The notes beneath the pieces were generated by a model. It was not told where the DNA came from. It made no database searches and worked only from the letters and a program-made list of their open reading frames with translations. Below, one piece after another: positions 2,629 through 58,901 of a stretch of 64,000 bases of DNA. The position numbers and the translations under genes were made by a program. The stretch spans positions 293 to 64,292 of the forward strand of contig JAJYXV010000003.1 of the NCBI GenBank assembly GCA_021801565.1, in the 5' to 3' direction. Positions within the stretch are counted from its first letter, which is position 1, and the number at the start of each line of letters is the position of its first letter. Origin of the DNA: a bacterium. Lineage in GTDB: Bacteria > Patescibacteriota > Minisyncoccia > UBA6257 > GWB1-50-10.

Positions 2629-2724
2629 CCCCGTTAGATAGAGATAAAATTAAATGTTATCGTATATTACAAATAAGGAAATGTTAAAAAACAAAAAGGT
2701 CAATCTAGAATTATATCTAACGGG
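2629..2724 (+). repeat. Intergenic palindromic element, CCCGTTAG...CTAACGGG family (divergent copy)
   Basis: CCCCGTTAGATAGAG ... TTATATCTAACGGGG inverted termini flank an AT-rich core. Right end abuts the GTG at 2725. Confidence 0.45.
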
Positions 2725-3534
2725 GTGCGCAATTTTATATTCTCGCCTCGCTCGAATAAAATTGACATGAGCAAACCATTTTTATCGGTTATTATTCCAG
2801 CATATAATGAATCAAAACGATTGCCACTTACGCTTATTGATATCGATCGAAAACTATCTCTGCGAGATTATGAATATGAAATATTCGTGGTAAGTGACGG
2901 GTCCCGTGATGAAACTGCGGATATCGCCGAACGATTTTCACATATGATAAAAAATCTTCATGTTATTGCAAATAAAGAAAATCATGGGAAAGGATGGGTG
3001 GTGCGGCAGGGAATGCTTGCGGCAAAAGGAAACTGGAGATTGTTTACCGATGCTGATAATTCAACCTCGATTGAACAATTTGATAAAATGGTTCCATATT
3101 TTTCCGCCGCTGGCGGATCTGCCTATAGCGGAAAAAAATCCTTTGATGTGGTGATAGGGTCAAGGGGAATAAAGGGAGCTGAATTACACCCTCCGCAACA
3201 ATGGTATAAGCAGATATTGGGAAAGATGGGAAATTTATTTATACAGATGGTGGTGCTTTGGGGAATACAGGATACACAATGTGGATTCAAATGTTTTTCT
3301 GAAGAGGTAACGGAAAAAGTATTTCCCCTTATGAAAATTGATCGTTGGGGGTTTGATGTGGAAGTGCTTGTGCTTGCAAAGCAGATGGGATATCGGATAA
3401 AAGAAATTCCGGTGCGTTGGGTGAATGATTTTCGTTCAAAAGTGAGCTTAAGCGCATATATTTCGACGCTTCTCGAGGTTATAAAAATCAGATGGTGGTT
3501 ATGGCGAAAACAGTATAAATTGGAAAAAAATTAA
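2725..3534 (+). CDS. Family 2 glycosyltransferase (dolichyl-phosphate-mannose synthase/GtrB-like)
   Basis: LSVIIPAYNES...VVSDGSRDET GT2 signature. Likely true start is the ATG at 2767 (MSKPFLSVII); the GTG at 2725 is in frame. Confidence 0.75.
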   Translation: MRNFIFSPRSNKIDMSKPFLSVIIPAYNESKRLPLTLIDIDRKLSLRDYEYEIFVVSDGSRDETADIAERFSHMIKNLHVIANKENHGKGWVVRQGMLAAKGNWRLFTDADNSTSIEQFDKMVPYFSAAGGSAYSGKKSFDVVIGSRGIKGAELHPPQQWYKQILGKMGNLFIQMVVLWGIQDTQCGFKCFSEEVTEKVFPLMKIDRWGFDVEVLVLAKQMGYRIKEIPVRWVNDFRSKVSLSAYISTLLEVIKIRWWLWRKQYKLEKN

Positions 3535-4666: not shown

Positions 4667-7600
4667 ATGAAAAAGATCATCTTTGATGAAAAGGAATTAA
4701 TTCAAATATATGAGGGATCTCCTTCATATTTTGAGTTGATGAAAAAACTTTCTGCGCTTTACGAAAAACAAAAGAAGGCAAAAGAAATTCCAGAGCGTTT
4801 AGTAGAAAGAAAGTTTATTAATTCTGCAAAATCATTGGCAAAAAGACTTAAATTGGTGAAAGAACACCATCATGCCAAATACTCTTTCCGTTTATGGGAT
4901 GAAAATCGTCTTGCAGAGTTTACTCATGCGGTACGAAAAACAATCCGTGAGAGGAAAAAATATGACGTATTGCTCAAGGATTTTCCAGAGCTGGGAAGTA
5001 CAAATATTGTGTACTTTACGATTCAATCGGCAATCCCTGGCGGTATTAAAGGGATTCGCGATGCAATCGCTATGGTCGGGAGCGTCGAGCTTGATACGCT
5101 TCGTGACGCATTGAATGATGCCGAAAGAGGAGTTTTGGATTGTATGAATGAGCTCTACAAAACAAAACGTATGTTACGTGTCGGAGATGTTGCTGAAGTA
5201 ATCAAAAGCAGCAAAGATAGCATTCGTGGTATTATGGTAAAACTTGCTGCGCAGGGTTTCTTTGTGAATATTCCTGGCGAGCATCACTTGTTTTTCAACA
5301 ATTCTCCAAACTTCTACACCCCAAAGGAATTAATGAAGCTTATCTCGACCGAAGAGCAAAATAGGATTGCAAATGTTCTTCATATGGGTCCTATTACCAC
5401 GCGTCGTCTCGCACAACAGCTGTATGGTCAGGAAAAAGTAAGTAATGCATTTCTTTCTACGTATCTTACTAACCTTACCGAACGCGGATTATTGGAAATT
5501 GATCGAGACACCAGTGAATATTTATTGACTAAAAAGGGAAGTGAATTTGGTATTGATGCTACATCAATTCAAGCTCTTGATATCACCATACTTGAAAACA
5601 AATTTCTTATAAGAGACGAAGAACGTTCAAAGCCGTTTAAGAGTCTTTCAGAAGTAAGAAATGCGGTCATTCAAGACAATGAGGATAAGGAGATAAGGTT
5701 GATTGATATATCAAATCATCTTTCTAAGGATAGCTTCAAATTTCTCACTATCTCAGAAATTCTTTTTGGGAATCAAAATACCGATGTAGCCCTTTTGGAA
5801 AAGATCCTTCTCAAATCGGAACCTGATTTTGCGATTGTAAGCGGTCTTGTTCAAGGCACATTCACAGCGCGAAATGTAAAGCGTCAAAATGAGCTTGTTC
5901 AACCTCGAAAATTATATAAGATTGGATCTCAAATAAGCGCCGCATCGCAATTTCTTAATAAACTTGATGAGCGAACAAAAGGTCCGGTTTGTATTGCGCT
6001 TGGTGATGATGATCTTCGTATTGCTGAAGATTATGCAGATATTGCGCAATTGAATGAGGGAAAAACTTGGACATTTGGCGTGAATTACACAAGTCTTACT
6101 GCAGAATTGCAACGAAGGATTAATATTCGCGAATATCACACAAAACGGAAGATTCAGTTTGAAATAATTTTACCGTATCAATATCGAGTACGTCGCGCAT
6201 TAAAAAATGCGAAAGAAGTGTGGAAGGAAATCGGAGTTAAAAAGTCCGAATACCGTCTTATCATGGAAATTCTCATTTTGAATCGCGCAAAACAACCGTA
6301 TCCTGAAATTTATGAAAAAGTTGTTGATGTCAATGCGTTACTTGGTGGTTTAAAACATGGAATTGTTACACCCGATTCTCTGATTTTAAAAGTTGGCGAT
6401 CGTACTATACAGTTTGTGCATAACACGAATTTTAGTGATGTAACACAATATGTAGATCCGCTTTTTACCTCAGAGAAAATTATGCGACATTTCATGTCTC
6501 GTGATTATCAGAAACTACCATGGATGTTGCTTGATGGACATCAAGAGATGTTTTATGGAACATATTTCCAGAATCACTGGGTTATGTGTCTTCCTGGAAT
6601 GCAGAATTCACTTGATATGGCAATGCACCGCAAAAAAACCCTCGTGACACGAGTTCTTCAATCAAAGTCCTTAAGGCAAAATACATTCCGAAAAGATCCA
6701 TCAACACCAGGGGCTGTTGAAATTGAAGTTTGTACTGAAGGTGGAATTGAAAACGATGGAAGAATCCGTCTTAGATTCTTTAATGATAAGATTATGGATT
6801 TACTTGATCGGGAGAAGGGCAAAAAGCACAAACAAACTGTTATTGGAGTTCTCACTGATCTTCAGTTTGGCTCTCCAACAATGCAGCCCGAACTTGTAAT
6901 AAAATATCTTGATTATTTACTCTACACTCGTGGTGCAAGATTGTTACGCGGAAATGGTGATTGGCTTCAGGGGTTTATCTATCCAGGATTTCCAGCAGAA
7001 TCAAGAACATTGCGGATGGTATCGGTTGATGCTCAACAACGCTTTACAAATGAGTTGTTAGTTCCGCTAATTACCGATGCTCCACACCTGGAAGATGTTG
7101 CTTTCTGGCAGGGGAATCATGAATGGGGTATCTGGAGTAATGCACTAACTGGTCAAAATGCGTTGTATTTTATGGAGGCCGCACTTCAAAGATTTATTGA
7201 TGGAATGAGAAAGGCGGGAAAAAATCCAAAACTCAAAACTGCAAGTACGGTAAGTAGAATTATTATGGCTCGTACCACGAATCCGATGGGTGATAGAATT
7301 CTTTTTCCGTATTTTGCTGAGACGGTAGATGAGTGGTTCAAAATTGCGTACACGCACCAGTGGCTTCCATATGGAGGCGGACGAACACCCGTTGATCAAC
7401 CACGTCGCTGGGTAAGCAACATGGCAAATGCTGCGGGAGATATAAATGTGTTGATTGGTGGAGACAAGCATTCGCTGTGGTTGAATCAGGAAGCGGGAAA
7501 GATTCTTATTCAATTGCCTGCTGCCGCAACTCAAAGTGGATATGAACTTGCTCGAGGACTTATGTCTACTGTAATGTTCGCGCTTCTCGTTGTGGATAAT

Positions 7601-9752: not shown

Positions 9753-9760
9753 TTATAAAT

Positions 9761-9900
9761 CCCGTTAGAAACCCTGCTTACCGGCAGGCAGGCGCAATCG
9801 ATATATATAAAATAAAAAACAACTATGAGATATATAACAAAACAATTAGTCGCAATAAAGCCTATTATGGGTTGCTTGATCGCGATCTGTTTCTAATGGG
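9761..9900 (+). repeat. Intergenic palindromic element, CCCGTTAGAAAC...GATCGCGATCTGTTTCTAATGGG family
   Basis: Left end CCCGTTAGAAAC plus a CCTGCTTACCGGCAGGCAGG hairpin. AT-rich core with ATATATAAAATA. Right end abuts ATG 9901. Confidence 0.6.
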
Positions 9901-11212: not shown

Positions 11213-11662
11213 TTGGTACATCAAACGATAGCTCCGATGTAACATCGGAGAGGAAAGTCCGGACACTCAACCCCGAATTTATTGAGGGGTACGTGTAGTG
11301 GGTAACACCCATCGAGGGAAACCTTAGAGGTGCGAGCAGTGACGCTCCAGCGCGCAAGAGTTGGAGAGACCCAATCCTAAGCTAGAAGGTCTAACTTCGC
11401 TATAGGGATAAAAAAGCGGAGGTGAAACGGCTAAATCCTTACATGAGTGCAAGATCGTGCTATCTTGTGCGGAGCACAAGTAACTGACAACAAACGACTA
11501 ACGACCAACAACGAAGATTTTTTCTATGTATTGTATGTTGTGGGTTGTAAGTTGTAAGTTACTCGCGCTCTGCGCGAGGTGGAGAATCGCTTGAGTCCGA
11601 GAGTAATCAAGGACCTAGATAAATTATCGTATAAACAGAATCCGGCTTATGATGTACCCAAT
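11213..11662 (+). ncRNA. rnpB: RNase P RNA (bacterial type A-like) with an ~85-nt inserted hairpin
   Basis: P4 strands GAGAGGAAAGTCCGGAC (11248-11264) and ACAGAATCCGGCTTAT (11634-11650). P1 GGTACATC / GATGTACC. P3 hairpin CTCCGATG-TAAC-CATCGGAG. Confidence 0.8.
11480..11563 (+). repeat. ACAAC-rich / GTTGT-rich hairpin element (copy A), inside rnpB
   Basis: GTAACTGACAACAAACGACTAACGACCAACAAC ... GTTGTGGGTTGTAAGTTGTAAGTTAC. The arms are complementary. Confidence 0.5.
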
Positions 11663-11880
11663 CCCGCCACTTTTTAAGCGGCGGGATTGACCCCGTGAGT
11701 AGAAACTCGATAAGCCACTTCGTGGCTGTATTTGTAGGCATTTCATTCTTTATGCATTGTATGCATTAACTAGATAAAATTCAGAAAATCCATCTTTTCA
11801 CAATCGAGTTTTCCTGCCTACCGCAGGCAGGCACTACGGGGTTGACTTTTCCCGCTGTTTTGTTAAAAATGTATCTGTTA

Positions 11881-12136: not shown

Positions 12137-12247
12137 CCCATTAGAAATCGCGATTGCTGATGGGATAAAAATAAAATGCAAAAAATACAAGTCGTAATTA
12201 AAGAAAGTATAAACCAGTTCGTTTAATCACGATCTGTTTCTCATAGA
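12137..12247 (+). repeat. Degenerate copy of the CCCGTTAGAAAC palindromic element
   Basis: CCCATTAGAAATCGCGAT ... ATCACGATCTGTTTCTCATAGA. Ends at rpmJ ATG 12248. Confidence 0.4.
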
Positions 12248-13251: not shown

Positions 13252-13382
13252 CCCGTTAATAATAGTTTTTATATCATTGACGGAATTATGAAATGACATT
13301 ATGTTAAATACACAAAAAACAAAAAAGACGAAATTTACAGAAAAAACGTACGGAAACGTAAACGTTTCCTATTATTAACGGG
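13252..13382 (+). repeat. Intergenic palindromic element, subfamily 2 (CCCGTTAATAATAG...CTATTATTAACGGG)
   Basis: Perfect 14-nt inverted termini. Internal hairpin GGAAACG-TAAA-CGTTTCC. Right end abuts ATG 13383. The preceding ATGAGT starts a tiny ORF. Confidence 0.55.
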
Positions 13383-25140: not shown

Positions 25141-25273
25141 CCCGTTAATGATAACTTTTTTCAGAAGATGGGAATTTTATGATTACATTTAATTATGAAG
25201 AATAAAAAAGAAAGGTACGACACATACAGACAAAAAGTGTACAGAAACGATTGCGTTTCTTATCATTAACGGG
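25141..25273 (+). repeat. Intergenic palindromic element, subfamily 2 (CCCGTTAATGATAA...TTATCATTAACGGG)
   Basis: Perfect 14-nt inverted termini. Internal hairpin AGAAACG-ATTG-CGTTTCT. Flanked by ATGGAT on both sides. Right end abuts ATG 25274. Confidence 0.55.
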
Positions 25274-36480: not shown

Positions 36481-37146
36481 ATGGGGAATTTTGGAAAGAT
36501 TTTAATTGGAGTTGCGATTATTGGGTTGCTTATCTATGGAGCATATTATGCATATACAAATTGGTGGGGGAATGGAAATGCCGATAGTGCGGTAGGAAAA
36601 GTAAAGGGTATTGCGGTTGAAGCGGTGCAGAGCACAAAAGAAAAAATATCGGAAGCACAAACAACGACAGGAGAAAAAATTGGGACATTTATAAAGGAAA
36701 AAACCGGATCGGTAATTTCCTCTATTGGAAACTCAATTTCAAGTTTTGGGGATTCTATAGTTGGCGAAAAGGTAACTACTAATCAAAATACTTCTGGAGG
36801 AAATTCAAGTATTAATTCTTCTCCACAGACAGTCGTACTATCAGGTGGTGTGAATAGTACCACCACGGAAGCTGCAACAGGATCAAATTTTGTTTTACCA
36901 CCTCCCTTTACTGCAATTATTACAAAAATAAATACACCGCTTGCGTTTTCAATAAATAGAGAGGTAAATTATTCGATTGATTGGGCAGATGGAACTACAG
37001 AAAAAGGAAAAGTTTTGGCCGGAGAAAGTATGTTAGTTTCACATGAGTGGAAAAAACAGGGGGATTATACTATTGTGTTCACTATTGTTGACTCTACAGA
37101 AAGTCACACCTATTCATTTCCTATAAGGGTATATGAGTCCCGTTAG
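36481..37146 (+). CDS. Hypothetical membrane-anchored, Ser/Thr/Gly-rich protein
   Basis: N-terminal TM, low-complexity middle. Its stop codon TAG lies inside the left terminus of the next palindromic element. Confidence 0.35.
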   Translation: MGNFGKILIGVAIIGLLIYGAYYAYTNWWGNGNADSAVGKVKGIAVEAVQSTKEKISEAQTTTGEKIGTFIKEKTGSVISSIGNSISSFGDSIVGEKVTTNQNTSGGNSSINSSPQTVVLSGGVNSTTTEAATGSNFVLPPPFTAIITKINTPLAFSINREVNYSIDWADGTTEKGKVLAGESMLVSHEWKKQGDYTIVFTIVDSTESHTYSFPIRVYESR

Positions 37147-37257
37147 AAACAGCGATCGCGCGCATAAACTATAAATTTTAGAGATATATATACTATGGTC
37201 GGATATATAAAATATACGTACACTTCGCATTTTTGATCGCGATCTGTTTCTAACGGG
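37139..37257 (+). repeat. Intergenic palindromic element, subfamily 1 (canonical copy)
   Basis: CCCGTTAGAAACAGCGATCGCG ... GATCGCGATCTGTTTCTAACGGG with an AT-rich core (GGATATATAAAATATAC). Right end abuts ATG 37258. Confidence 0.6.
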
Positions 37258-38073
37258 ATGAATAAATTTAAAAAAACTGAAATTCTTTCTGCACAACGCT
37301 CGCATAAACCGAGAAAAAAAATTCGCGTTTGGGGAATTGCGCTTATTATATTTTTTGTTGTTGGAATTCTTATCGGATTGTCTTATCTTATTTTGAATAT
37401 GCAGATGCTTAAGGTACAGAGTATAAAAGTATCGGGAGTCCGCCTTACAAATCAGAATACTATCATTTCTTCTTTTTTTGCAGAGTCGGTAAAGCAAAAA
37501 GCGTGGTTGGTGCTCCTTGGTCCCGATAACCTTCTTTTTTGGAAATTTGCCCCAGAAGAAATTTCTCCTCTGTATGTTTCTACAGTGCAAGATATAAAAA
37601 AAGACGTTAGTTTTGGAGAGAAGAAAGTTCTTTTGGATGTAACAGAACGTTCAGTGGTGAACGTACTTTGTGAATATAATGGAGGAAAGTGTTATGGAAT
37701 GGATGAAAACGGGTTTGTTTTTTCTTCTGTACCGGAAGTGCATGGTGCACTTATTTTGCGGTTTGAGGCGGGTCCAGGAGAGAAAATAATGGTGGGGAAA
37801 CAATACCTTGATTCCCCCGAGTGGACGAAAAATATTATGGAAACAATTTCGATTATGGAATCTGAAGGGTTTACTCCTAAATTAATAAAGGTAAAAGGGG
37901 TTGGACTCGAAGAGTGGGAAGCGGTAATGCCTGAAGGATTTTCTTTTTATTTTAGCCTTCACTTTATTCCTGAAAATTTCCGTTCAATCTTAAACGATAT
38001 TTCTTCAAAGACTCGTCTCGATACGCTCCAATATTTCGATTTTCGAGTGCAGAACAGAGTGTATTATAAATGA
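37258..38073 (+). CDS. ftsQ: FtsQ/DivIB-like cell-division protein (POTRA)
   Basis: Basic N-terminus, single TM, POTRA-like region (LKVQSIKVSGVRLTNQNTI). Confidence 0.45.
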   Translation: MNKFKKTEILSAQRSHKPRKKIRVWGIALIIFFVVGILIGLSYLILNMQMLKVQSIKVSGVRLTNQNTIISSFFAESVKQKAWLVLLGPDNLLFWKFAPEEISPLYVSTVQDIKKDVSFGEKKVLLDVTERSVVNVLCEYNGGKCYGMDENGFVFSSVPEVHGALILRFEAGPGEKIMVGKQYLDSPEWTKNIMETISIMESEGFTPKLIKVKGVGLEEWEAVMPEGFSFYFSLHFIPENFRSILNDISSKTRLDTLQYFDFRVQNRVYYK

Positions 38074-46417: not shown

Positions 46418-46722
46418 ATTGACCTAAATCGTATTTTGTGTATTATATACACAAGCCCGTAGATAGTCCCGATTTTATATGCGCGAAGCGAATTAATAAA
46501 ATCGTGGATCCCGATCAGGAAAATGTATTGGGATAGGCAGCCAGAAATGGCAGAAGTCCTGCTGAGGAAACAAAAATAGGTGTTAGCAAGTTAGGTATTA
46601 GGTGTTTAGGAAATTTCTAAATTACTAATGGTCTAGCCGTCTAACTTTCTGATTTAAGAGTCTGCGGCGAAAGGTCGGAGATTTTTTTGTTTTGTTTGAG
46701 CGAAGCGAAATTACAAAACAAA

Positions 46723-46887
46723 CCCCGTTAGATACATATGTATTTTGTCTATGTGTTGAAAAGTAGGAAAGATTCAAATTTTTATGTTGGAAAGACTAAA
46801 AATTTGAAAGAGTGTCTTGAAAACATAAAGGGGGAAGAGATGTCTAAAGAACAGGCTTAAGTATGATCTTTATGGTATCTAATAGGG
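46723..46887 (+). repeat. Degenerate palindromic element (CCCCGTTAGATAC ... GTATCTAATAGGG)
   Basis: Inverted termini, 11 of 13 matching, about 165 bp apart in the long rplJ leader. Confidence 0.3.
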
Positions 46888-46932
46888 TACTGAATTTTGT
46901 GTTTATTCGCGAAGCTTATAAACAAAATTCGT

Positions 46933-47430
46933 ATGAAAACAAAAGCACAAAAGATAAAAAAAGTTGAGGAAGGAGGAAAAATCGTTGATGAAAAAAATAC
47001 GTTGATCTTTGCCGATTTTACTGGAACAAAAGTGAATGATATGAATTCACTCAGAAAAAGTCTTTATGCACTTGAATCAAAATTTGAAGTATTCAAAAAG
47101 CGTTTGTTCCGTGTGGTTTTACAACAAAAGGGATTTGAATTTAATCCAGAAACACTTGTGGGTCAACTTGGTGTTATTCACACCAATAAGAGATTAGATG
47201 AAATTGCGGGACCAGTGTACAAGTTTGCAAAACAATTCAAGACATTCAAAATTCTCGGAAGTGTTGATTTGAAGAGTAAGATATTTGTTTCAGGAACGGA
47301 GGTTGAAGCAATTGGACAATTACCTTCACGTGAAGTACTTATTGCGCAAGTGGTGGGTACAATCGCAGCGCCAATGAGTGCCTTTCTCTATGTGTTAAGT
47401 GAGAGATCAAAACAATTACAGTCGAAATAA
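46933..47430 (+). CDS. rplJ: 50S ribosomal protein L10
   Basis: MKTKAQKIKKVEEGGKIVDEKNTLIFADFTGTKVNDMNSLRK. The ORF track gives a longer N-terminus starting at 46897. Confidence 0.8.
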   Translation: MKTKAQKIKKVEEGGKIVDEKNTLIFADFTGTKVNDMNSLRKSLYALESKFEVFKKRLFRVVLQQKGFEFNPETLVGQLGVIHTNKRLDEIAGPVYKFAKQFKTFKILGSVDLKSKIFVSGTEVEAIGQLPSREVLIAQVVGTIAAPMSAFLYVLSERSKQLQSK

Positions 47431-47435
47431 AAATA

Positions 47436-47507
47436 ACTAACAACAAACAACAAACGACCAACAACAGGATATAAAAAGTTGTATGTTGTAAGTCGTAGGT
47501 TGTGGGT
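47436..47507 (+). repeat. ACAAC-rich / GTTGT-rich hairpin element (copy B), between rplJ and rplL
   Basis: AACTAACAACAAACAACAAACGACCAACAACAGG ... GTTGTATGTTGTAAGTCGTAGGTTGTGGGT. Confidence 0.5.
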
Positions 47508-47515
47508 AAAATATT

Positions 47516-47881
47516 ATGGAAAAATTTAATGATATCATTGAGAAAATCGAGAAAATGACCGTTGTAGAACTTGCGGAGCTCGTAAAAGTTCTCGAAGAAA
47601 AGTTTGGAGTAACCGCATCAATGCCATCAACTGGAGGAGCGGGAGTGGCAGGAGCGGAAGTTGTTGAGAAAACGGAATTTAACGTAGTCCTAAAAGTGGC
47701 GGGTGATCAGAAAATCAATGTGATCAAGGCCATCAGAGAAGCAACCGGATTGGGACTGAAAGAAGCAAAGGATATTGCTGATGCAGCTCCAAAGACGGTG
47801 AAAGAAGGAATGAAGAAGGAAGATGCGGAAGAGTTGAAGAAGAAACTCGAAGCAGCAGGTGCAACAGTGGCGTTAGAATAA
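47516..47881 (+). CDS. rplL: 50S ribosomal protein L7/L12
   Basis: [15 protein letters not shown]...[30 protein letters not shown]. Confidence 0.9.
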
Positions 47882-48120
47882 AATAAACGTTTTGTAGTGC
47901 CGACGGTTTGTTTGTTCCAGCGATAAACAACCGTCTGCACTCTCGTTTTGAAAATCCGCTCAGTAGCGGAACCAAGCTTTTCAAAACTCCGAGAGCCACC
48001 ACAAAATGTTTATTTTATTCTTTTTTAATTTGGTTTAAAATACAAAATATGGGCGCTTACCCGCCCATCCTGCCTACCAGTGGCAGGCGGTAGGCAGAAC
48101 TCAGATAGTTTTAAATATTT

Positions 48121-48192
48121 GCGCGCATAGCTCAGTGGTAGAGCGTTCCGTTCACATCGGAGAGGTCGTAGGTTCGATCCCTACTGCGCGCA
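48121..48192 (+). tRNA. tRNA-Val (anticodon CAC)
   Basis: Manual cloverleaf. Acceptor GCGCGCA / TGCGCGC, D-stem GCTC / GAGC, anticodon stem TTCCG / CGGAG, loop TTCACAT, T-loop TTCGATC. CCA not encoded. Confidence 0.85.
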
Positions 48193-49970: not shown

Positions 49971-50402
49971 ATGCTTCTTGGTGAATATAAACATACAATA
50001 GATCCAAAAGGAAGAGTTGCTATTCCTGCGAAGTTTCGAGAGAAATTTACTGCAGGTGCAATCGTTACTCGCGGTTTGGATCACTGTCTTTTTGTGTTTA
50101 GTAAATCCGAGTGGGAGATACTGGCACAGAAAATTATTTCACTTCCGCTTGCACAAGCCGACTCCCGTGCGTTTGCTCGTCTTATGCTTTCGGGCGCAAC
50201 CGATGTTGAGCTTGATGTGCAGGGAAGAATTTTGATTCCGGACTCACTTCGAAATTATGCGCAGATGAAGAAGCAGGTGGTGGTGACCGGAATGTATACA
50301 CGCGTTGAATTGTGGGATACGGATGCATGGGAAGCGTACAAGAAAAAAACCGAAAGTGCAGCAGATGAAATTGCCGAGAAATTGAGTGAGTTGGGAATCT
50401 AA
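49971..50402 (+). CDS. mraZ: Transcriptional regulator MraZ
   Basis: MLLGEYKHTIDPKGRVAIPAKFR and a second DxxGR repeat (ELDVQGRILIP). Confidence 0.8.
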   Translation: MLLGEYKHTIDPKGRVAIPAKFREKFTAGAIVTRGLDHCLFVFSKSEWEILAQKIISLPLAQADSRAFARLMLSGATDVELDVQGRILIPDSLRNYAQMKKQVVVTGMYTRVELWDTDAWEAYKKKTESAADEIAEKLSELGI

Positions 50403-50405
50403 TTT

Positions 50406-50499
50406 ACCAACAACAAACAACATACAACTAACAACATGAAAAACACAGAGATATATAAAAGTCCGCCAGTCGTTCGTTGTTGGTTGTGGGTTGTATGTT
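50406..50499 (+). repeat. ACAAC-rich / GTTGT-rich hairpin element (copy C), overlapping the rsmH start
   Basis: ACCAACAACAAACAACATACAACTAACAACATG ... CAGTCGTTCGTTGTTGGTTGTGGGTTGTATGTT. The right arm contains the rsmH ATG (50495). Confidence 0.5.
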
Positions 50500-56826: not shown

Positions 56827-56916
56827 TAAACTAACCCAATATGAATATAGAAAAAAGAAATTGTCAGAATTGTCCGCCCGAGGCGGATCAGCCTTGGGCT
56901 GATAAATATTAAACTT

Positions 56917-58617
56917 ATGAAAGAAGAACGAACATGTCAAAACTGTAAAAACCGATTTGTTATCGAGTCGGAAGACTTTGATTTTTATAAAAAAATTAGT
57001 GTTCCACCCCCAACATGGTGTCCGGAATGCAGACTTATTCGGCGATTTTCGTTTATGAATTTGTGGAGTCTGTATAAACGGAAATGCTCAAAGTGTGGTA
57101 AATCAATGGTAAGTATCCATGCAGAAGATACCGAATTTCCAGTCTACTGTCAGCCATGTTGGTGGGCCGACGATTGGGATGGAACCGAATATGCTATGGA
57201 ATATAACCAAAATCGGCCATTTCTTGAGCAGGTACGGGAGTTGGTTAATAAAACTCCATACATGGGTCTTGAGAGTGCATATCTCACCAATACAAACAGT
57301 GATTATACAAACGGAACGGCATATTCAAAAAATTGTTATATGACGTTTTGGGCAGATTATTGTGAAAATGTTTATTATTCGATATTTCTTTTTAATCTTC
57401 GTGATTCGTTAAATTGTTATAGAATGAAAGATAGTGAGCTTTGTTATGAAGATGTTGGATGTTATAAGTGCTACACGACGTATTATTCTGAAGAATGTGA
57501 TTCATGTACCGATGTATGGTTTTCACGCTCTTGTACTGGATGCACAAATTGTTTTGGGTGTATTAATTTGCGGAATAAAAGCTATTGTATTTTTAATGAG
57601 CAATATACAAAAGAAAAATATTTTGAAAAATTGAAAGAATTTAATCTTTCATCATATTTTGCATTGGAGAATATAAGAAGGAAGGTTTATGAATTTTGGT
57701 TGAAATATCCTCGCAGAGCATATATAGGGAATAGTTTGAATGTAAATGTGACGGGTGACTATGTATATGAGTCGAAGAATTCACGCGACACCTACATGGC
57801 AAGTGGTGTTGAGGATTCGCGGTTTACTCAATTTATCTCAGTTGCAAAAGCGCATGATTCTTATGATTATACCGGATGGGGAAATGGCGCAGAACGTATT
57901 TATGAGTCATGTGTTGTTGGAGAGGGGGCAAATAATATAAAGTTCTCAAATGAGTGCTGGCCCGATGTATTGAATATTGAATATTCAATTTATGCAATTA
58001 CGTGCAAAAATGTTATGGGTTGTGTGAATCTAAAGCGCAAGGAATATTGTATTTTAAATAAACAATATACAAAAGAAGAATATGAAAAATTATCAACGCA
58101 TATCCGCGAAGAGATGATTCGAAATCCCTATGTTGATTCTTTGGGTCGCACATGGAAATATGGTGAATTTTTACCGTATGAACTTTCTCCTTTCACATAT
58201 AATCAAACAATAGCGTTGGCTTTTTTCCCAAAAAATAAGGAAGAAATTTTAAAAGAAGGAATACGGTGGCATGAGGCAGAAGAAAACGAATATATAATTA
58301 CCATACAAGCGAAAGATCTTCCGGATTCCATTCAAAATACAGATGAATCTATTTTGAAGGAAGTTATTGCGTGTGAAACTTGTGGAAAGGCGTATAAAAT
58401 TCTTCAGGGAGAATTAGACCTCCTAAGGAGATTTTCATTGCCGATATATCACCATTGTTCAACGTGTCGAAGAAATGCATTATTTTTTAGAACAAATTTA
58501 CCGCGTTTATACAATAGAAATTGTATGAAGTGTAATAAACAAATAAATACTTCATATGCACCCGACAGACCAGAAATTGTGTATTGCGAACAATGCTATC
58601 AAGCGGAAATGGTGTAG
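56917..58617 (+). CDS. Large cysteine-rich protein with terminal zinc-ribbon domains and internal Cys repeats (uncharacterised)
   Basis: N-terminal CQNC-x21-CPECRLIRR is mirrored at the C-terminus as CETC...CSTCRRN. Internal repeats GC[IV]NL[RK]xKxYCI[FL]N[EK]QYTKE[KE]Y occur twice. 566 aa. Confidence 0.5.
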   Translation: MKEERTCQNCKNRFVIESEDFDFYKKISVPPPTWCPECRLIRRFSFMNLWSLYKRKCSKCGKSMVSIHAEDTEFPVYCQPCWWADDWDGTEYAMEYNQNRPFLEQVRELVNKTPYMGLESAYLTNTNSDYTNGTAYSKNCYMTFWADYCENVYYSIFLFNLRDSLNCYRMKDSELCYEDVGCYKCYTTYYSEECDSCTDVWFSRSCTGCTNCFGCINLRNKSYCIFNEQYTKEKYFEKLKEFNLSSYFALENIRRKVYEFWLKYPRRAYIGNSLNVNVTGDYVYESKNSRDTYMASGVEDSRFTQFISVAKAHDSYDYTGWGNGAERIYESCVVGEGANNIKFSNECWPDVLNIEYSIYAITCKNVMGCVNLKRKEYCILNKQYTKEEYEKLSTHIREEMIRNPYVDSLGRTWKYGEFLPYELSPFTYNQTIALAFFPKNKEEILKEGIRWHEAEENEYIITIQAKDLPDSIQNTDESILKEVIACETCGKAYKILQGELDLLRRFSLPIYHHCSTCRRNALFFRTNLPRLYNRNCMKCNKQINTSYAPDRPEIVYCEQCYQAEMV

Positions 58618-58652
58618 TCTATAAAGTTAAAAGTCCATAAAATTTTTAAAAT

Positions 58653-58901
58653 ATGAAAGAAGAACGAACGTGTCAAAACTGTGAATCTGTTTTCATTATT
58701 GAAGATGAGGATTTTCAGTTTTACAAAAAAATTGATGTACCCCCACCGACGTTTTGTTGGAAGTGTAGATTACAAAGAAGGATGATGTGGAGAAATACGA
58801 GGGTGGTATATAAACGCGCCGATCTTGGAAATCTTACTCTTTTTTCAGCATTTTCACCGGATTCTCCATTAAAGATTGAAATATATTATAATATTGGTTA
58901 G
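58653..58901 (+). CDS. Truncated paralog of the N-terminal zinc-ribbon domain of the preceding gene (possible gene fragment)
   Basis: The first 30 nt are identical to the 56917 start in 29 of 30 positions. Protein MKEERTCQNCESVFIIEDEDFQFYKKIDVPPPTFCWKCRLQRR, after which homology is lost. Confidence 0.4.
   Translation: MKEERTCQNCESVFIIEDEDFQFYKKIDVPPPTFCWKCRLQRRMMWRNTRVVYKRADLGNLTLFSAFSPDSPLKIEIYYNIG

Follow-up and report, generated by a model that had tools for sequence, protein, structure and literature searches.

In a 64,000-nucleotide stretch of a patescibacterial genome (GenBank assembly GCA_021801565.1, contig JAJYXV010000003.1, positions 293 to 64,292), hereafter the window, short palindromic sequences recur between genes and often end directly against a start codon. 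The window has 37% G+C, is ~89% coding and carries nearly all of its genes on the + strand; by its S4 homologues, the organism falls among Jorgensenbacteria-like Parcubacteria. An initial annotation, made from the letters alone, had listed eight copies of one palindromic family here, among them the focal copy in front of an ftsQ-like gene. We recovered all eight, with the common termini CCCGTTA(G/A)... on the left and ...TAACGGG on the right, and added a ninth. We consider it most probable that the copies form a family of non-autonomous, hairpin-forming mobile elements of the MITE kind (miniature transposable elements with inverted repeats), with the start codon as their target.

Copies in the window

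Named by their first position, the listed copies fall into three subfamilies: a-type (CCCGTTAGAAAC..GATCGCGATCTGTTTCTAACGGG; 9761, 12137, 37139 and 53276), b-type (CCCGTTAATRATA...; 13252 and 25141) and c-type (CCCCGTTAGATA...; 2629 and 46723). Bit scores below refer to the covariance model described after the list.

37139..37257, + strand: focal a-type copy; outer stem CCCGTTAGAAACAG / CTGTTTCTAACGGG, inner stem GATCGCG, AT-rich core; -37.3 kcal/mol
37133..37138, + strand: left duplicate of the ftsQ-like start plus the invariant T; ATGAG on the left, right copy ATGAA at 37258-37262
9761..9900, + strand: a-type copy with an extra CCTGC..GGCAGG hairpin, pgk / DHHA1 (nrnA-like) junction; 62.3 bits; left duplicate decayed to ATAAAT (9755-9760)
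12137..12247, + strand: degenerate a-type copy, infA / rpmJ junction; CCCATTAGAAAT...GTTTCTCATAGA; 55.4 bits; flanks ATGCAT and ATGAAA
53276..53413, + strand: a-type copy, PBP2 gene / murF junction; 46.7 bits; left flank ATTCAT (decayed)
13252..13382, + strand: b-type copy, rpsK / rpsD junction; CCCGTTAATAATAG...CTATTATTAACGGG; flanks ATGAGT and ATGAAA; carries TTGACG-17-TATGTT and the small hairpin GGAAACGTAAACGTTTCC
25141..25273, + strand: b-type copy, frr (RRF) / rseP junction; perfect duplication ATGGAT / ATGGAT
2629..2725, + strand: c-type copy, 41 nt 5' of the probable GT2 start (ATG 2767); CCCCGTTAGATAG...TATCTAACGGGG; 36.6 bits; duplication not visible
46723..46888, + strand: c-type copy, 44 nt 5' of rplJ (ATG 46933); CCCCGTTAGATAC...GTATCTAATAGGG; duplication not visible
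11691..11841, - strand: ninth, degenerate copy, rnpB / infA junction; CCCCGTGAGTAGAAACTCGAT...ATCGAGTTT..CACTACGGGG

The heptamer TAACGGG occurs 14 times in the window against an expectation of 4.7, a count that was reached in none of 100 shuffles, and a long hairpin is predicted for each of the eight listed copies (z -2.9 to -5.3). A covariance model, a check that the initial annotation had proposed, was made with 12 a-type copies, of which 11 belong to other genomes. It recovered seven of the eight (E 9e-23 to 8e-6), each with a higher score on the + strand (101.9 bits on + and 51.8 on - for the focal copy); copy 46723 was missed by this a-type model, and the scan of the window returned nothing significant beyond the seven. 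The GATCGCGATC extension and the ATATATAAAATA core that had been described for copies 9761, 37139 and 53276 are indeed present, as is the CCTGC...GGCAGG hairpin in two of them (9761 and 53276).

That most copies abut a start codon proved accurate for six of the nine (9761, 12137, 13252, 25141, 37139 and 53276), where Pfam assigns the adjoining genes as a DHHA1 gene, rpmJ (an identity thereby confirmed), rpsD, rseP, ftsQ-like and murF. It does not apply to copies 2629 and 46723, nor to the ninth, which abuts no start codon and has TTGA on both sides (11687-11690 and 11842-11845). The GT2 gene had been given a GTG start immediately after copy 2629; Pfam places the GT2 domain at residue 7 from ATG 2767 and the L10 domain at residue 2 from ATG 46933, so that the two c-type copies end 41 and 44 nt short of the real GT2 and rplJ starts, and the GTG junction is probably spurious. 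Of the 64 + strand genes of the window, 33 have ATG[AG]A as their first bases, and an element occupies six of these 33 sites. A single orientation, likewise claimed, holds for the eight listed copies and is limited to them, since the interior of copy 11691 fits better when inverted (16 vs -7.5 against copy 53276, and 5 vs -6 against copy 9761).

The c-type copy before rplJ lies in a 515-nt region in which a motif of ~29 nt (TTTTRTWTGMGCGAAGCGAAWT...) occurs three times (46473-46501, 46690-46718 and 46899-46927) at a spacing of ~210 nt; the element stands between the second and third occurrences.

Filled and empty sites in related genomes

We compared gene junctions with those of relatives that share 56-86% protein identity and found six that are polymorphic for presence of the element. 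L-numbers denote loci from other genomes; L208 and L209 come from one species, sampled twice.

pgk / DHHA1: empty in L208/L209, where AAATAATT runs directly into ATGAAAAAAATATT; filled in the window (AAATAATT-ATAAAT-(element)-ATGAAAAAAATATT) and in L210 (ATGAAT-(a-type)-ATGAAAAAAAA)
rpsK / rpsD: empty in L209 (TAATACCATGAAAAAAATT), L210 and L213; filled in the window; in L208 only a b-type right-arm remnant, AAATTATTATTAAAGGG, is left before the ATG
infA / rpmJ: empty in L213; filled in the window (a-type) and in L208 (a b-type copy almost the same as the one before rpsD in the window)
frr / rseP: empty in L213, where the genes overlap; filled in the window (b-type) and in L210, which has a tandem pair at one start codon, TTTAT-(c-type)-ATGGAT-(a-type)-ATGGATATT
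ftsQ-like gene (focal site): empty in L333, L334 and L335; filled in the window
pilin gene start: no element in the window (40060); a b-type copy in L333 and L334

One start codon thus holds different subfamilies in different genomes, and one subfamily is found at different genes in related genomes. At the focal site, L333 (FtsQ identity 81%) has one ATG, overlapped by 8 nt by the upstream open reading frame (ORF); in the window the upstream ORF now closes at a TAG within the left arm, as does the PBP2 ORF at copy 53276. Tandem or nested copies were seen in L008, L210 and L095. The rpsD copy is shared by seven independent assemblies of the same species, which rules out an assembly artefact.

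At the rpsK / rpsD junction, the remnant in L208 is 17 nt long (5491-5507), and L209 has TACC at 5490-5493; the difference looks like imprecise and near-precise loss of the element inside one population. Another palindromic element, with ends CCCCGCCCGATAAC...GTATCAGGCGGGG, lies between rpsM and rpsK in L208 (4877-4983) and also in L209; the a-type model scores it weakly (24 bits), and it is absent from the same junction in the window.

Flanking sequence and target duplication

Flank and arm statistics were drawn from 44 non-redundant copies. At a typical junction, ATGNN and a T stand to the left of CCCG and the gene's own ATGNN stands to the right of CGGG, as in the pairs ATGGAT/ATGGAT (25141), ATGAGT/ATGAAT (37139), ATGAGT/ATGAAA (13252) and ATGCAT/ATGAAA (12137). 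The left and right pentamers are identical at both positions 4 and 5 in 31 of the 44 copies, against 20.9 under permutation, and none of 5000 permutations reached 31 (P<0.0002). At empty sites the target bases are present just once. Uncommon starts are repeated on the left, namely ATGAG/ATGAG and ATGGA/ATGGA three times each, ATGCAA/ATGCAA (L081) and ATGAAAT/ATGAAAT. Duplications also flank non-genic copies: ATTGA (L017), ATTTA (L091), GTCTA (L120) and TTGA (copy 11691 of the window). By target site, ATGAA accounts for 31 of the 44 copies and ATGAG and ATGGA for four each, with ATTGA and ATTTA as non-genic sites. The left ATG has been lost in nine copies.

The base beside CCCG is T in 43 of the 44 copies regardless of the sixth base of the gene, and the empty sites have A, A, A, T and C at this position; this T is therefore not taken from the target. 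Two parses of the junction fit the sequences. One posits a 5-bp duplication with an extra T and is favoured by L120; the other posits a symmetric element T-CCCG...CGGG-A with a 4-bp (TGAA-like) duplication and is favoured by the c-type copies and copy 11691, which have C...G where others have T...A. Under the 4-bp parse, the A of the regenerated ATG would be supplied by the element. The apparent length of the duplication ranges from 4 to 6 nt.

The ends of the element also carry stop codons. Read from the duplicated ATG, the left arm is open (ATG AAT CCC GTT AGA AAC), and the other frames meet TGA (in ATGA) or TAG (in CCCGTTAG). In the right arm one frame ends in a stop that overlaps the ATG (..TTT CTA ACG GGA TGA), one stops 4 nt before it (..TTC TAA CGG G ATG) and the third enters the gene in frame (..TCT AAC GGG ATG). 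A co-directional upstream ORF ends within 60 nt of 30 of the 44 copies: eight of these ORFs end at the TGA of the duplicated ATGA, five at the left-arm TAG and 13 at most 20 nt 5' of the duplicated ATG. Together, the stops and these endpoints make the element typical of tight or overlapping operon junctions, with neither gene damaged.

Stem structure and polarity

The ends are invariant, (T)CCCGTTAG / CTAACGGG(A), and fully paired, with arms of at least 12 nt. Arm positions 1-7 do not vary, positions 8 and 9 form Watson-Crick pairs in 44 of 44 copies with three pair types each, and positions 10-12 do so in 36-43 of 44 with several pair types. Over the 44 copies, the pairs flanking the arms are T-A in 42 and A/G-U in all, so the AU of AUG joins the stem. 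The a-type consensus comprises a 14-bp outer stem that takes in this AU, a gene-proximal bulge of 4 nt (A[T/C]CT) and a 7-bp inner stem with A-U and G-C alternating (7 vs 4). Within the a-type alignment 97.6% of cells are paired, compared with only 31-42% in slid controls; four pairs have changed on both sides, and the covariation score was reached in none of 500 shuffles. Many copies have a small GC hairpin directly before the right arm.

The long hairpins and covarying positions that the initial annotation had suggested looking for were thus both found, and the covariation indicates that pairing is selected. A palindrome needed for transposition as DNA and a stem needed as RNA would give the same covariation signal. 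Sense-strand wobble does not favour selection at the RNA level, as five G-U pairs were counted against 11 A-C mismatches at arm positions 1-12. In the a-type, the commonest subfamily, the polarity of the copies relative to the gene, judged by the bulge and by a C-against-T mismatch at position 13, is constant in 15 of 15 copies from eight genomes.

Minimal hairpins of 27-30 nt that consist of the arms only (CCCGTTAGAAAC-N3-4-GTTTCTAACGGG) occur in L054 (2403-2429), L107 (2752-2779) and L112 (3867-3893). They are not at start codons, and the one in L107 is followed by a T-run, resembling an intrinsic terminator; these hairpins could have arisen by internal deletion or could represent the mobile unit in its basic form.

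Distribution across phyla

An exact scan for the 14-mer ATCCCGTTAGAAAC over one genome per species (596 Gb) returned at least 120 loci. A 14-mer is expected thousands of times by chance in 596 Gb, so most single matches are noise; among the matches listed, however, a second inverted terminus lies 27-189 nt away in ~43 loci. These paired loci comprise ~27 from the Candidate Phyla Radiation (CPR), four from Omnitrophota, five from Planctomycetota and a few from unclassified metagenome-assembled genomes (MAGs), with the CPR labels being Saccharibacteria, Parcubacteria/Paceibacterota, Jorgensen-, Zambryski-, Vogel-, Nomura-, Sung-, Kerfeld- and Levybacteria, and Kazan. Termini are identical across the foreign loci; interiors are unrelated in length and sequence.

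An ORF of at least 100 codons begins at the very next base after 34 of 48 minimal pairs, again among the matches listed. Pfam scans of 20 downstream ORFs identified unrelated housekeeping and envelope genes, including SecF, DnaJ, IleRS, LigA, RpoA, TrmD, RnfD and PGI, and the domains begin at the N-terminus, which indicates that the abutting ATG is the real start. As controls, the element was absent from 80 unrelated rpsD loci (~0.38 Mb; S4 relatives from JGI metagenomes, <=45% identity), and 119 chance matches to the 14-mer in viral contigs (1.04 Mb) included no paired element; the few inverted pairs in those contigs were 190-2233 nt apart, with unrelated arms and flanks. BLAST against plasmids and phages found nothing.

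In the short versions from Omnitrophota, Planctomycetota and Saccharibacteria, GGAGG, GAGG or AGGG lies just within the right arm, at a distance of 11-12 nt from the ATG. A compact version of 49-50 nt is found in Omnitrophota (L103 3787-3835 and 3218-3266, L109 2109-2158, L079 36-85) and has an internal GGAGG and three arm segments, with TAACGGGAT added to the left and right arms. Its left arm can pair either with the middle segment, in which case the Shine-Dalgarno sequence and the AUG stay free, or with the right arm, in which case the AUG is masked; the predicted energies are similar.

A mobile family at start codons

The elements are mobile and non-coding, have invariant ends and a duplication that begins with the start codon, occupy polymorphic insertion sites and cross phylum boundaries. 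They are short (36-189 nt) and lack a conserved ORF, bear terminal inverted repeats around an interior that varies from a few bases to ~165 nt, and are multicopy with presence/absence polymorphism and a target duplication, all of which matches a MITE. The initial annotation had argued from the fixed orientation and the start-codon junction that an RNA device was to be preferred over a MITE, and had kept a domesticated MITE as a fallback on account of the ATGGAT on either side of copy 25141. It is the fallback that our results uphold, with ATGGAT as a target duplication; the junction itself is a signature of insertion, with ATGNN on both sides and empty orthologous sites. RNA-level roles are possible as consequences of insertion.

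The filled and empty sites show that the element integrates at the first bases of a gene, mostly ATGAA, ATGGA or ATGAG, and duplicates them. The downstream ATGNN stays the working start codon, and the upstream copy is left behind and often decays. At the left end, TGA and TAG close an overlapping upstream ORF; at the right end, TAA and TGA stop two frames, the third running into the ATG in frame. With stops at both ends, the element can be tolerated at packed or overlapping junctions in genomes with almost no intergenic space. The start-codon bias may reflect a DNA-level preference for AT(G)NR together with loss of gene-breaking insertions, and from the fixed orientation we infer that the mechanism is directional or that selection acts. 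When mRNA reads through the element, its arms would form a stem of 14-22 bp that includes the AU of AUG, and translation of the downstream gene may depend on ribosomes that finish the upstream ORF or a mini-ORF and melt the left arm, i.e., on translational coupling. In the Omnitrophota and Planctomycetota versions, dependence could instead be on the Shine-Dalgarno sequence just inside the right arm. An effect of the start-codon stem on translation is plausible from its predicted pairing. A bolder proposal, which we regard as possible though doubtful, is that of a pan-phylum hairpin that homes to start codons, rebuilds the split ATG from its own A and the duplicated TG, is moved by a putative enzyme that recognises its (T)CCCGTTA ends and couples or gates downstream translation; it would then be a mobile device that rewires gene starts in the most compact genomes of bacteria, and not neutral junk.

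Several points weigh against this interpretation of the copies as MITE-like elements. A search of all collected loci for pairs 260-4000 nt apart turned up no autonomous partner bearing these ends, and no transposase was found among 26 window ORFs scanned against Pfam, a subset of the window ORFs. A MITE family does not usually have identical ends of 12-14 nt over several phyla around unrelated interiors, and the extra invariant T and a duplication of 4-6 nt do not fit a simple fixed stagger. With all 15 a-type copies in the same orientation, symmetric cut-and-paste is insufficient unless selection or a directional mechanism is added. The taxonomy of the foreign loci consists of the labels given by MAG depositors. 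The seed ATCCCGTTAGAAAC forces AT beside one end, so the flank logo of the foreign loci partly reflects the way in which they were found; copies independent of the seed (in the window, L208, L210, L333 and L334) show the same flanks. Finally, the functional steps of coupling and occlusion are inferred.

We found no matching description in Rfam or in the searchable literature, whose coverage does not extend to subscription journals and ISfinder. Literature searches with the end sequences gave only chance matches, such as a C. elegans primer, and searches on MITEs, start codons and CPR found nothing relevant. Only two tRNAs exceed the Rfam gathering threshold in the window; at E up to 10, the focal copy matches just generic hairpin (miRNA precursor) models, far below threshold.

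Alternative explanations

One may postulate that the elements are of mobile origin and are now kept for function, either as a portable translation-start cassette with a promoter, a stabilising 5' hairpin and a ribosome-binding region, or as a start-occluding stem that couples or gates translation. We consider this rather unlikely. In its favour, the stem takes in the AU of AUG, orientation to the gene is fixed, many copies carry the small GC hairpin before the right arm, GGAGG, GAGG or AGGG lies inside the right arm of the 49-50 nt Omnitrophota version and of several Planctomycetota and Saccharibacteria copies, and the b-type TTGACG-17-TATGTT is held across two genomes despite a differing spacer. 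Against it, close relatives do without the element at the same genes, and the downstream genes share no function. The portable promoter proposed in the initial annotation did not stand, as promoter-like scores are alike on the two strands (8.18 sense vs 8.08 antisense, P=0.63, 36 copies); window scans for a sigma-70 promoter were likewise at chance level, which leaves the b-type TTGACG-17-TATGTT as the sole remaining lead. As to the start-occluding role proposed there, the inclusion of the AU of the start codon and the covarying stem positions leave it possible as a consequence of insertion; the leader-ORF and wobble tests do not support it. Mini-ORFs from the left ATG do cross the whole element to the right-arm stops or the in-frame gene in 14 of 35 copies, but that frame is open in eight of 28 long copies against seven and six for the other frames, so the enrichment of leader ORFs over shuffles is compositional; we rejected a selected leader peptide or full read-through coupling on these counts. 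A more radical form, in which a cis-regulatory RNA (an operator, a riboswitch-like element or an RNase III site) evolved in place and is not mobile DNA at all, appears very improbable. Strong predicted hairpins, the position at the start codon and stem covariation are what it would predict; yet presence of the element differs among relatives with 70-86% S4 identity, where orthologous junctions are empty or filled by other subfamilies, and flanking duplications, tandem and nested copies (L008, L210 and L095), the same ends at unrelated genes in several phyla and the lack of any Rfam family match all contradict it.

A different kind of mobility is conceivable, in which single-stranded-DNA hairpins are moved in trans by an HUH/Y1 enzyme, in the manner of REPIN-RAYT or of IS200/IS605 PATEs, and inserted directionally 3' of ATGAA; what looks like a duplication would in that case be a cleavage motif at the right end of the element itself and not the product of a staggered cut. 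This would account for a stem kept as structure (compensatory changes at positions 8-12 and in the inner stem), the strict a-type orientation in 15 of 15 copies, the asymmetric junction with T on the left only, the minimal hairpins that stand alone in L054, L107 and L112 and the lack of a flanking transposase, as expected of a single-copy enzyme acting in trans. We nevertheless judge it improbable: directionality and hairpins fit PATE-type insertion, which goes 3' of a fixed 4-5 nt target and makes no duplication, but the flanks vary with the target gene, a-type copies having ATGGA/ATGGA and ATGAA/ATGAA within L210 alone and ATGCAA/ATGCAA in L081, for which a true duplication is simpler. No Y1 transposase was seen in the window, and the unpaired GTAG or CGTC tag that defines REPs (PMC3733652) is absent. 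Scarcely credible, in our view, is that the copies are integron-type attC sites or cassettes without ORFs. The conserved stem base, the variable centre (3 to >100 nt) and the covarying stem are attC-like, and c-type arms match the core consensus exactly (GTTAGAT for GTTRRRY, ATCTAAC for RYYYAAC). However, the order is reversed (CCC-GTTAGAA-AC ... GT-TTCTAAC-GGG), with GTTRRRY in the 5' arm, RYYYAAC in the 3' arm and GTT/AAC at the outer end of the stem; the neighbours are core genes that are syntenic in all relatives (ribosomal proteins, murF, ftsQ, frr) and not cassettes; no integrase was found among the window proteins scanned; and an ATGNN duplication is not expected from attC x attI recombination. 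Other candidates were set aside for want of support, namely a DNA uptake sequence, a dif/Xer site, a CIRCE-like operator, a translational bypass (hop) element, mimicry of the initiator-tRNA anticodon stem (GGG/CCC beside CAU/AUG) and complementarity of UUAGAAA to the 16S 3' tail.

Relation to known systems

By analogy, the MITE-like elements described here may operate most like the Correia elements of Neisseria, with a lifestyle that resembles REPINs and Rickettsia palindromic elements (RPEs). Correia elements (CREE/NEMIS) are non-coding palindromic MITEs of ~100-160 bp with long terminal inverted repeats that lie near genes or in the gaps separating them and share their transcripts; signals for expression can come from the ends, and the stems formed in mRNA are substrates of RNase III. 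They duplicate TA, are known only from Neisseria and insert in either orientation with no known tie to start codons, whereas the present elements have an ATGNN duplication, a fixed orientation, other ends and hosts in several phyla. RPEs are selfish palindromes of ~100-150 bp that survive in very compact genomes with coding capacity spared; they lie in frame inside ORFs and are translated, in contrast to insertion at the first codon, which leaves the ORF intact behind a regenerated ATG.

An attC site has RYYYAAC (R'') in its 5' arm and GTTRRRY (R') in its 3' arm, and AAC/GTT lies on the stem's inner side. The present elements share with it a folded imperfect palindrome with a conserved core at the stem base, a variable centre and a fixed orientation between genes, and differ in the reversed core order, the lack of an integrase or cassette context and the target duplication; membership was rejected on the order of the core sites and the missing cassette context. 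As a further lead, the ends presumably recall those of piggyBac / IS1380-type elements, with CCC... and then TAGAAA (piggyBac CCCTAGAAAGATA against CCCGTTAGAAAC here). Duplications of 4-5 bp beginning with T are common to both, and precise loss would fit the empty sites of relatives. The likeness covers ~10 bases and may be chance, however; the target is TTAA against ATGNN/TGNN here, no such transposase was found in the scanned ORFs, and a literature search on IS1380/piggyBac ends gave only eukaryotic piggyBac papers. In the RNA phage MS2, the replicase start downstream of the coat gene is masked by upstream pairing and is opened by translating ribosomes. Such coupling is a possible mode of working and not a family resemblance; here the upstream ORF or mini-ORF ends in or beside the left arm, and the putative pairing partner is delivered by a mobile element.

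PMC3116915 and PMC3733652 describe REP/REPIN-RAYT systems as short intergenic hairpin repeats mobilised in trans by an enzyme encoded outside the element, and in the latter a REP is a palindrome of 20-40 nt with an unpaired GTAG or CGTC tag at one end. Short intergenic hairpins whose structure is conserved above sequence are common to these and to the present elements. REPINs, by comparison, are pairs of inverted REPs for which no target duplication is reported, and they are restricted to particular lineages; the present elements have no tag, one long stem whose loop varies, a duplication and ends that are the same across phyla. Membership in the REP family was rejected on the missing tag and the duplication.

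To our knowledge, no other transposable element is described as landing by default on the start codon itself, with ends that keep both neighbours intact. If the reading of these copies as start-codon-targeting MITE-like elements is correct, they would represent a new safe-harbour strategy for selfish DNA in genomes that are ~89% coding, and landing at start codons may be the reason why CPR genomes can bear any repeats. Ends of 12-14 nt shared by Parcubacteria, Saccharibacteria, Microgenomates-type bacteria, Omnitrophota and Planctomycetota would point to a widely exchanged mobilising enzyme or to a shared cellular factor. Given a stable stem over the start codon, gene calling and expression are probably affected. 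Some Saccharibacteria can now be cultured and genetically manipulated (PMC10633639), which makes these predictions testable.

Other features of the window

The genes of the window have no visible Shine-Dalgarno-like purine tract on their 5' side; the upstream sequence is AU-rich (e.g., TAATTATT-ATG), and abutting or overlapping genes are frequent. It seems that initiation of translation is independent of Shine-Dalgarno pairing here.

A bacterial class A RNase P RNA lies at 11213-11664 (+ strand) and scores 96.3 bits, just below the Rfam gathering score of 100; the score is probably lowered by an inserted hairpin of ~90 nt at 11473-11565. This hairpin belongs to a second, unrelated family, with further members at 47426-47510 (rplJ / rplL) and 50396-50495 (before rsmH (mraW)), in which an A/C-rich arm, ACAACAAACGACCAACAAC, pairs with a G/T-rich arm, GTTGTRRGTTGT. 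The many G-U pairs suggest that this second family matters as RNA.

A near-perfect inverted repeat at 47875-48021, with 25-nt outer arms that are 92% complementary (-61 kcal/mol including nested hairpins), begins at the rplL stop codon; a T-run comes after it, and next a tRNA gene at 48121. A direct repeat of 130 nt with 71% identity (56904-57033 and 58640-58769) spans the starts of two adjacent ORFs; both begin ATGAAAGAAGAA and are probably paralogous genes.

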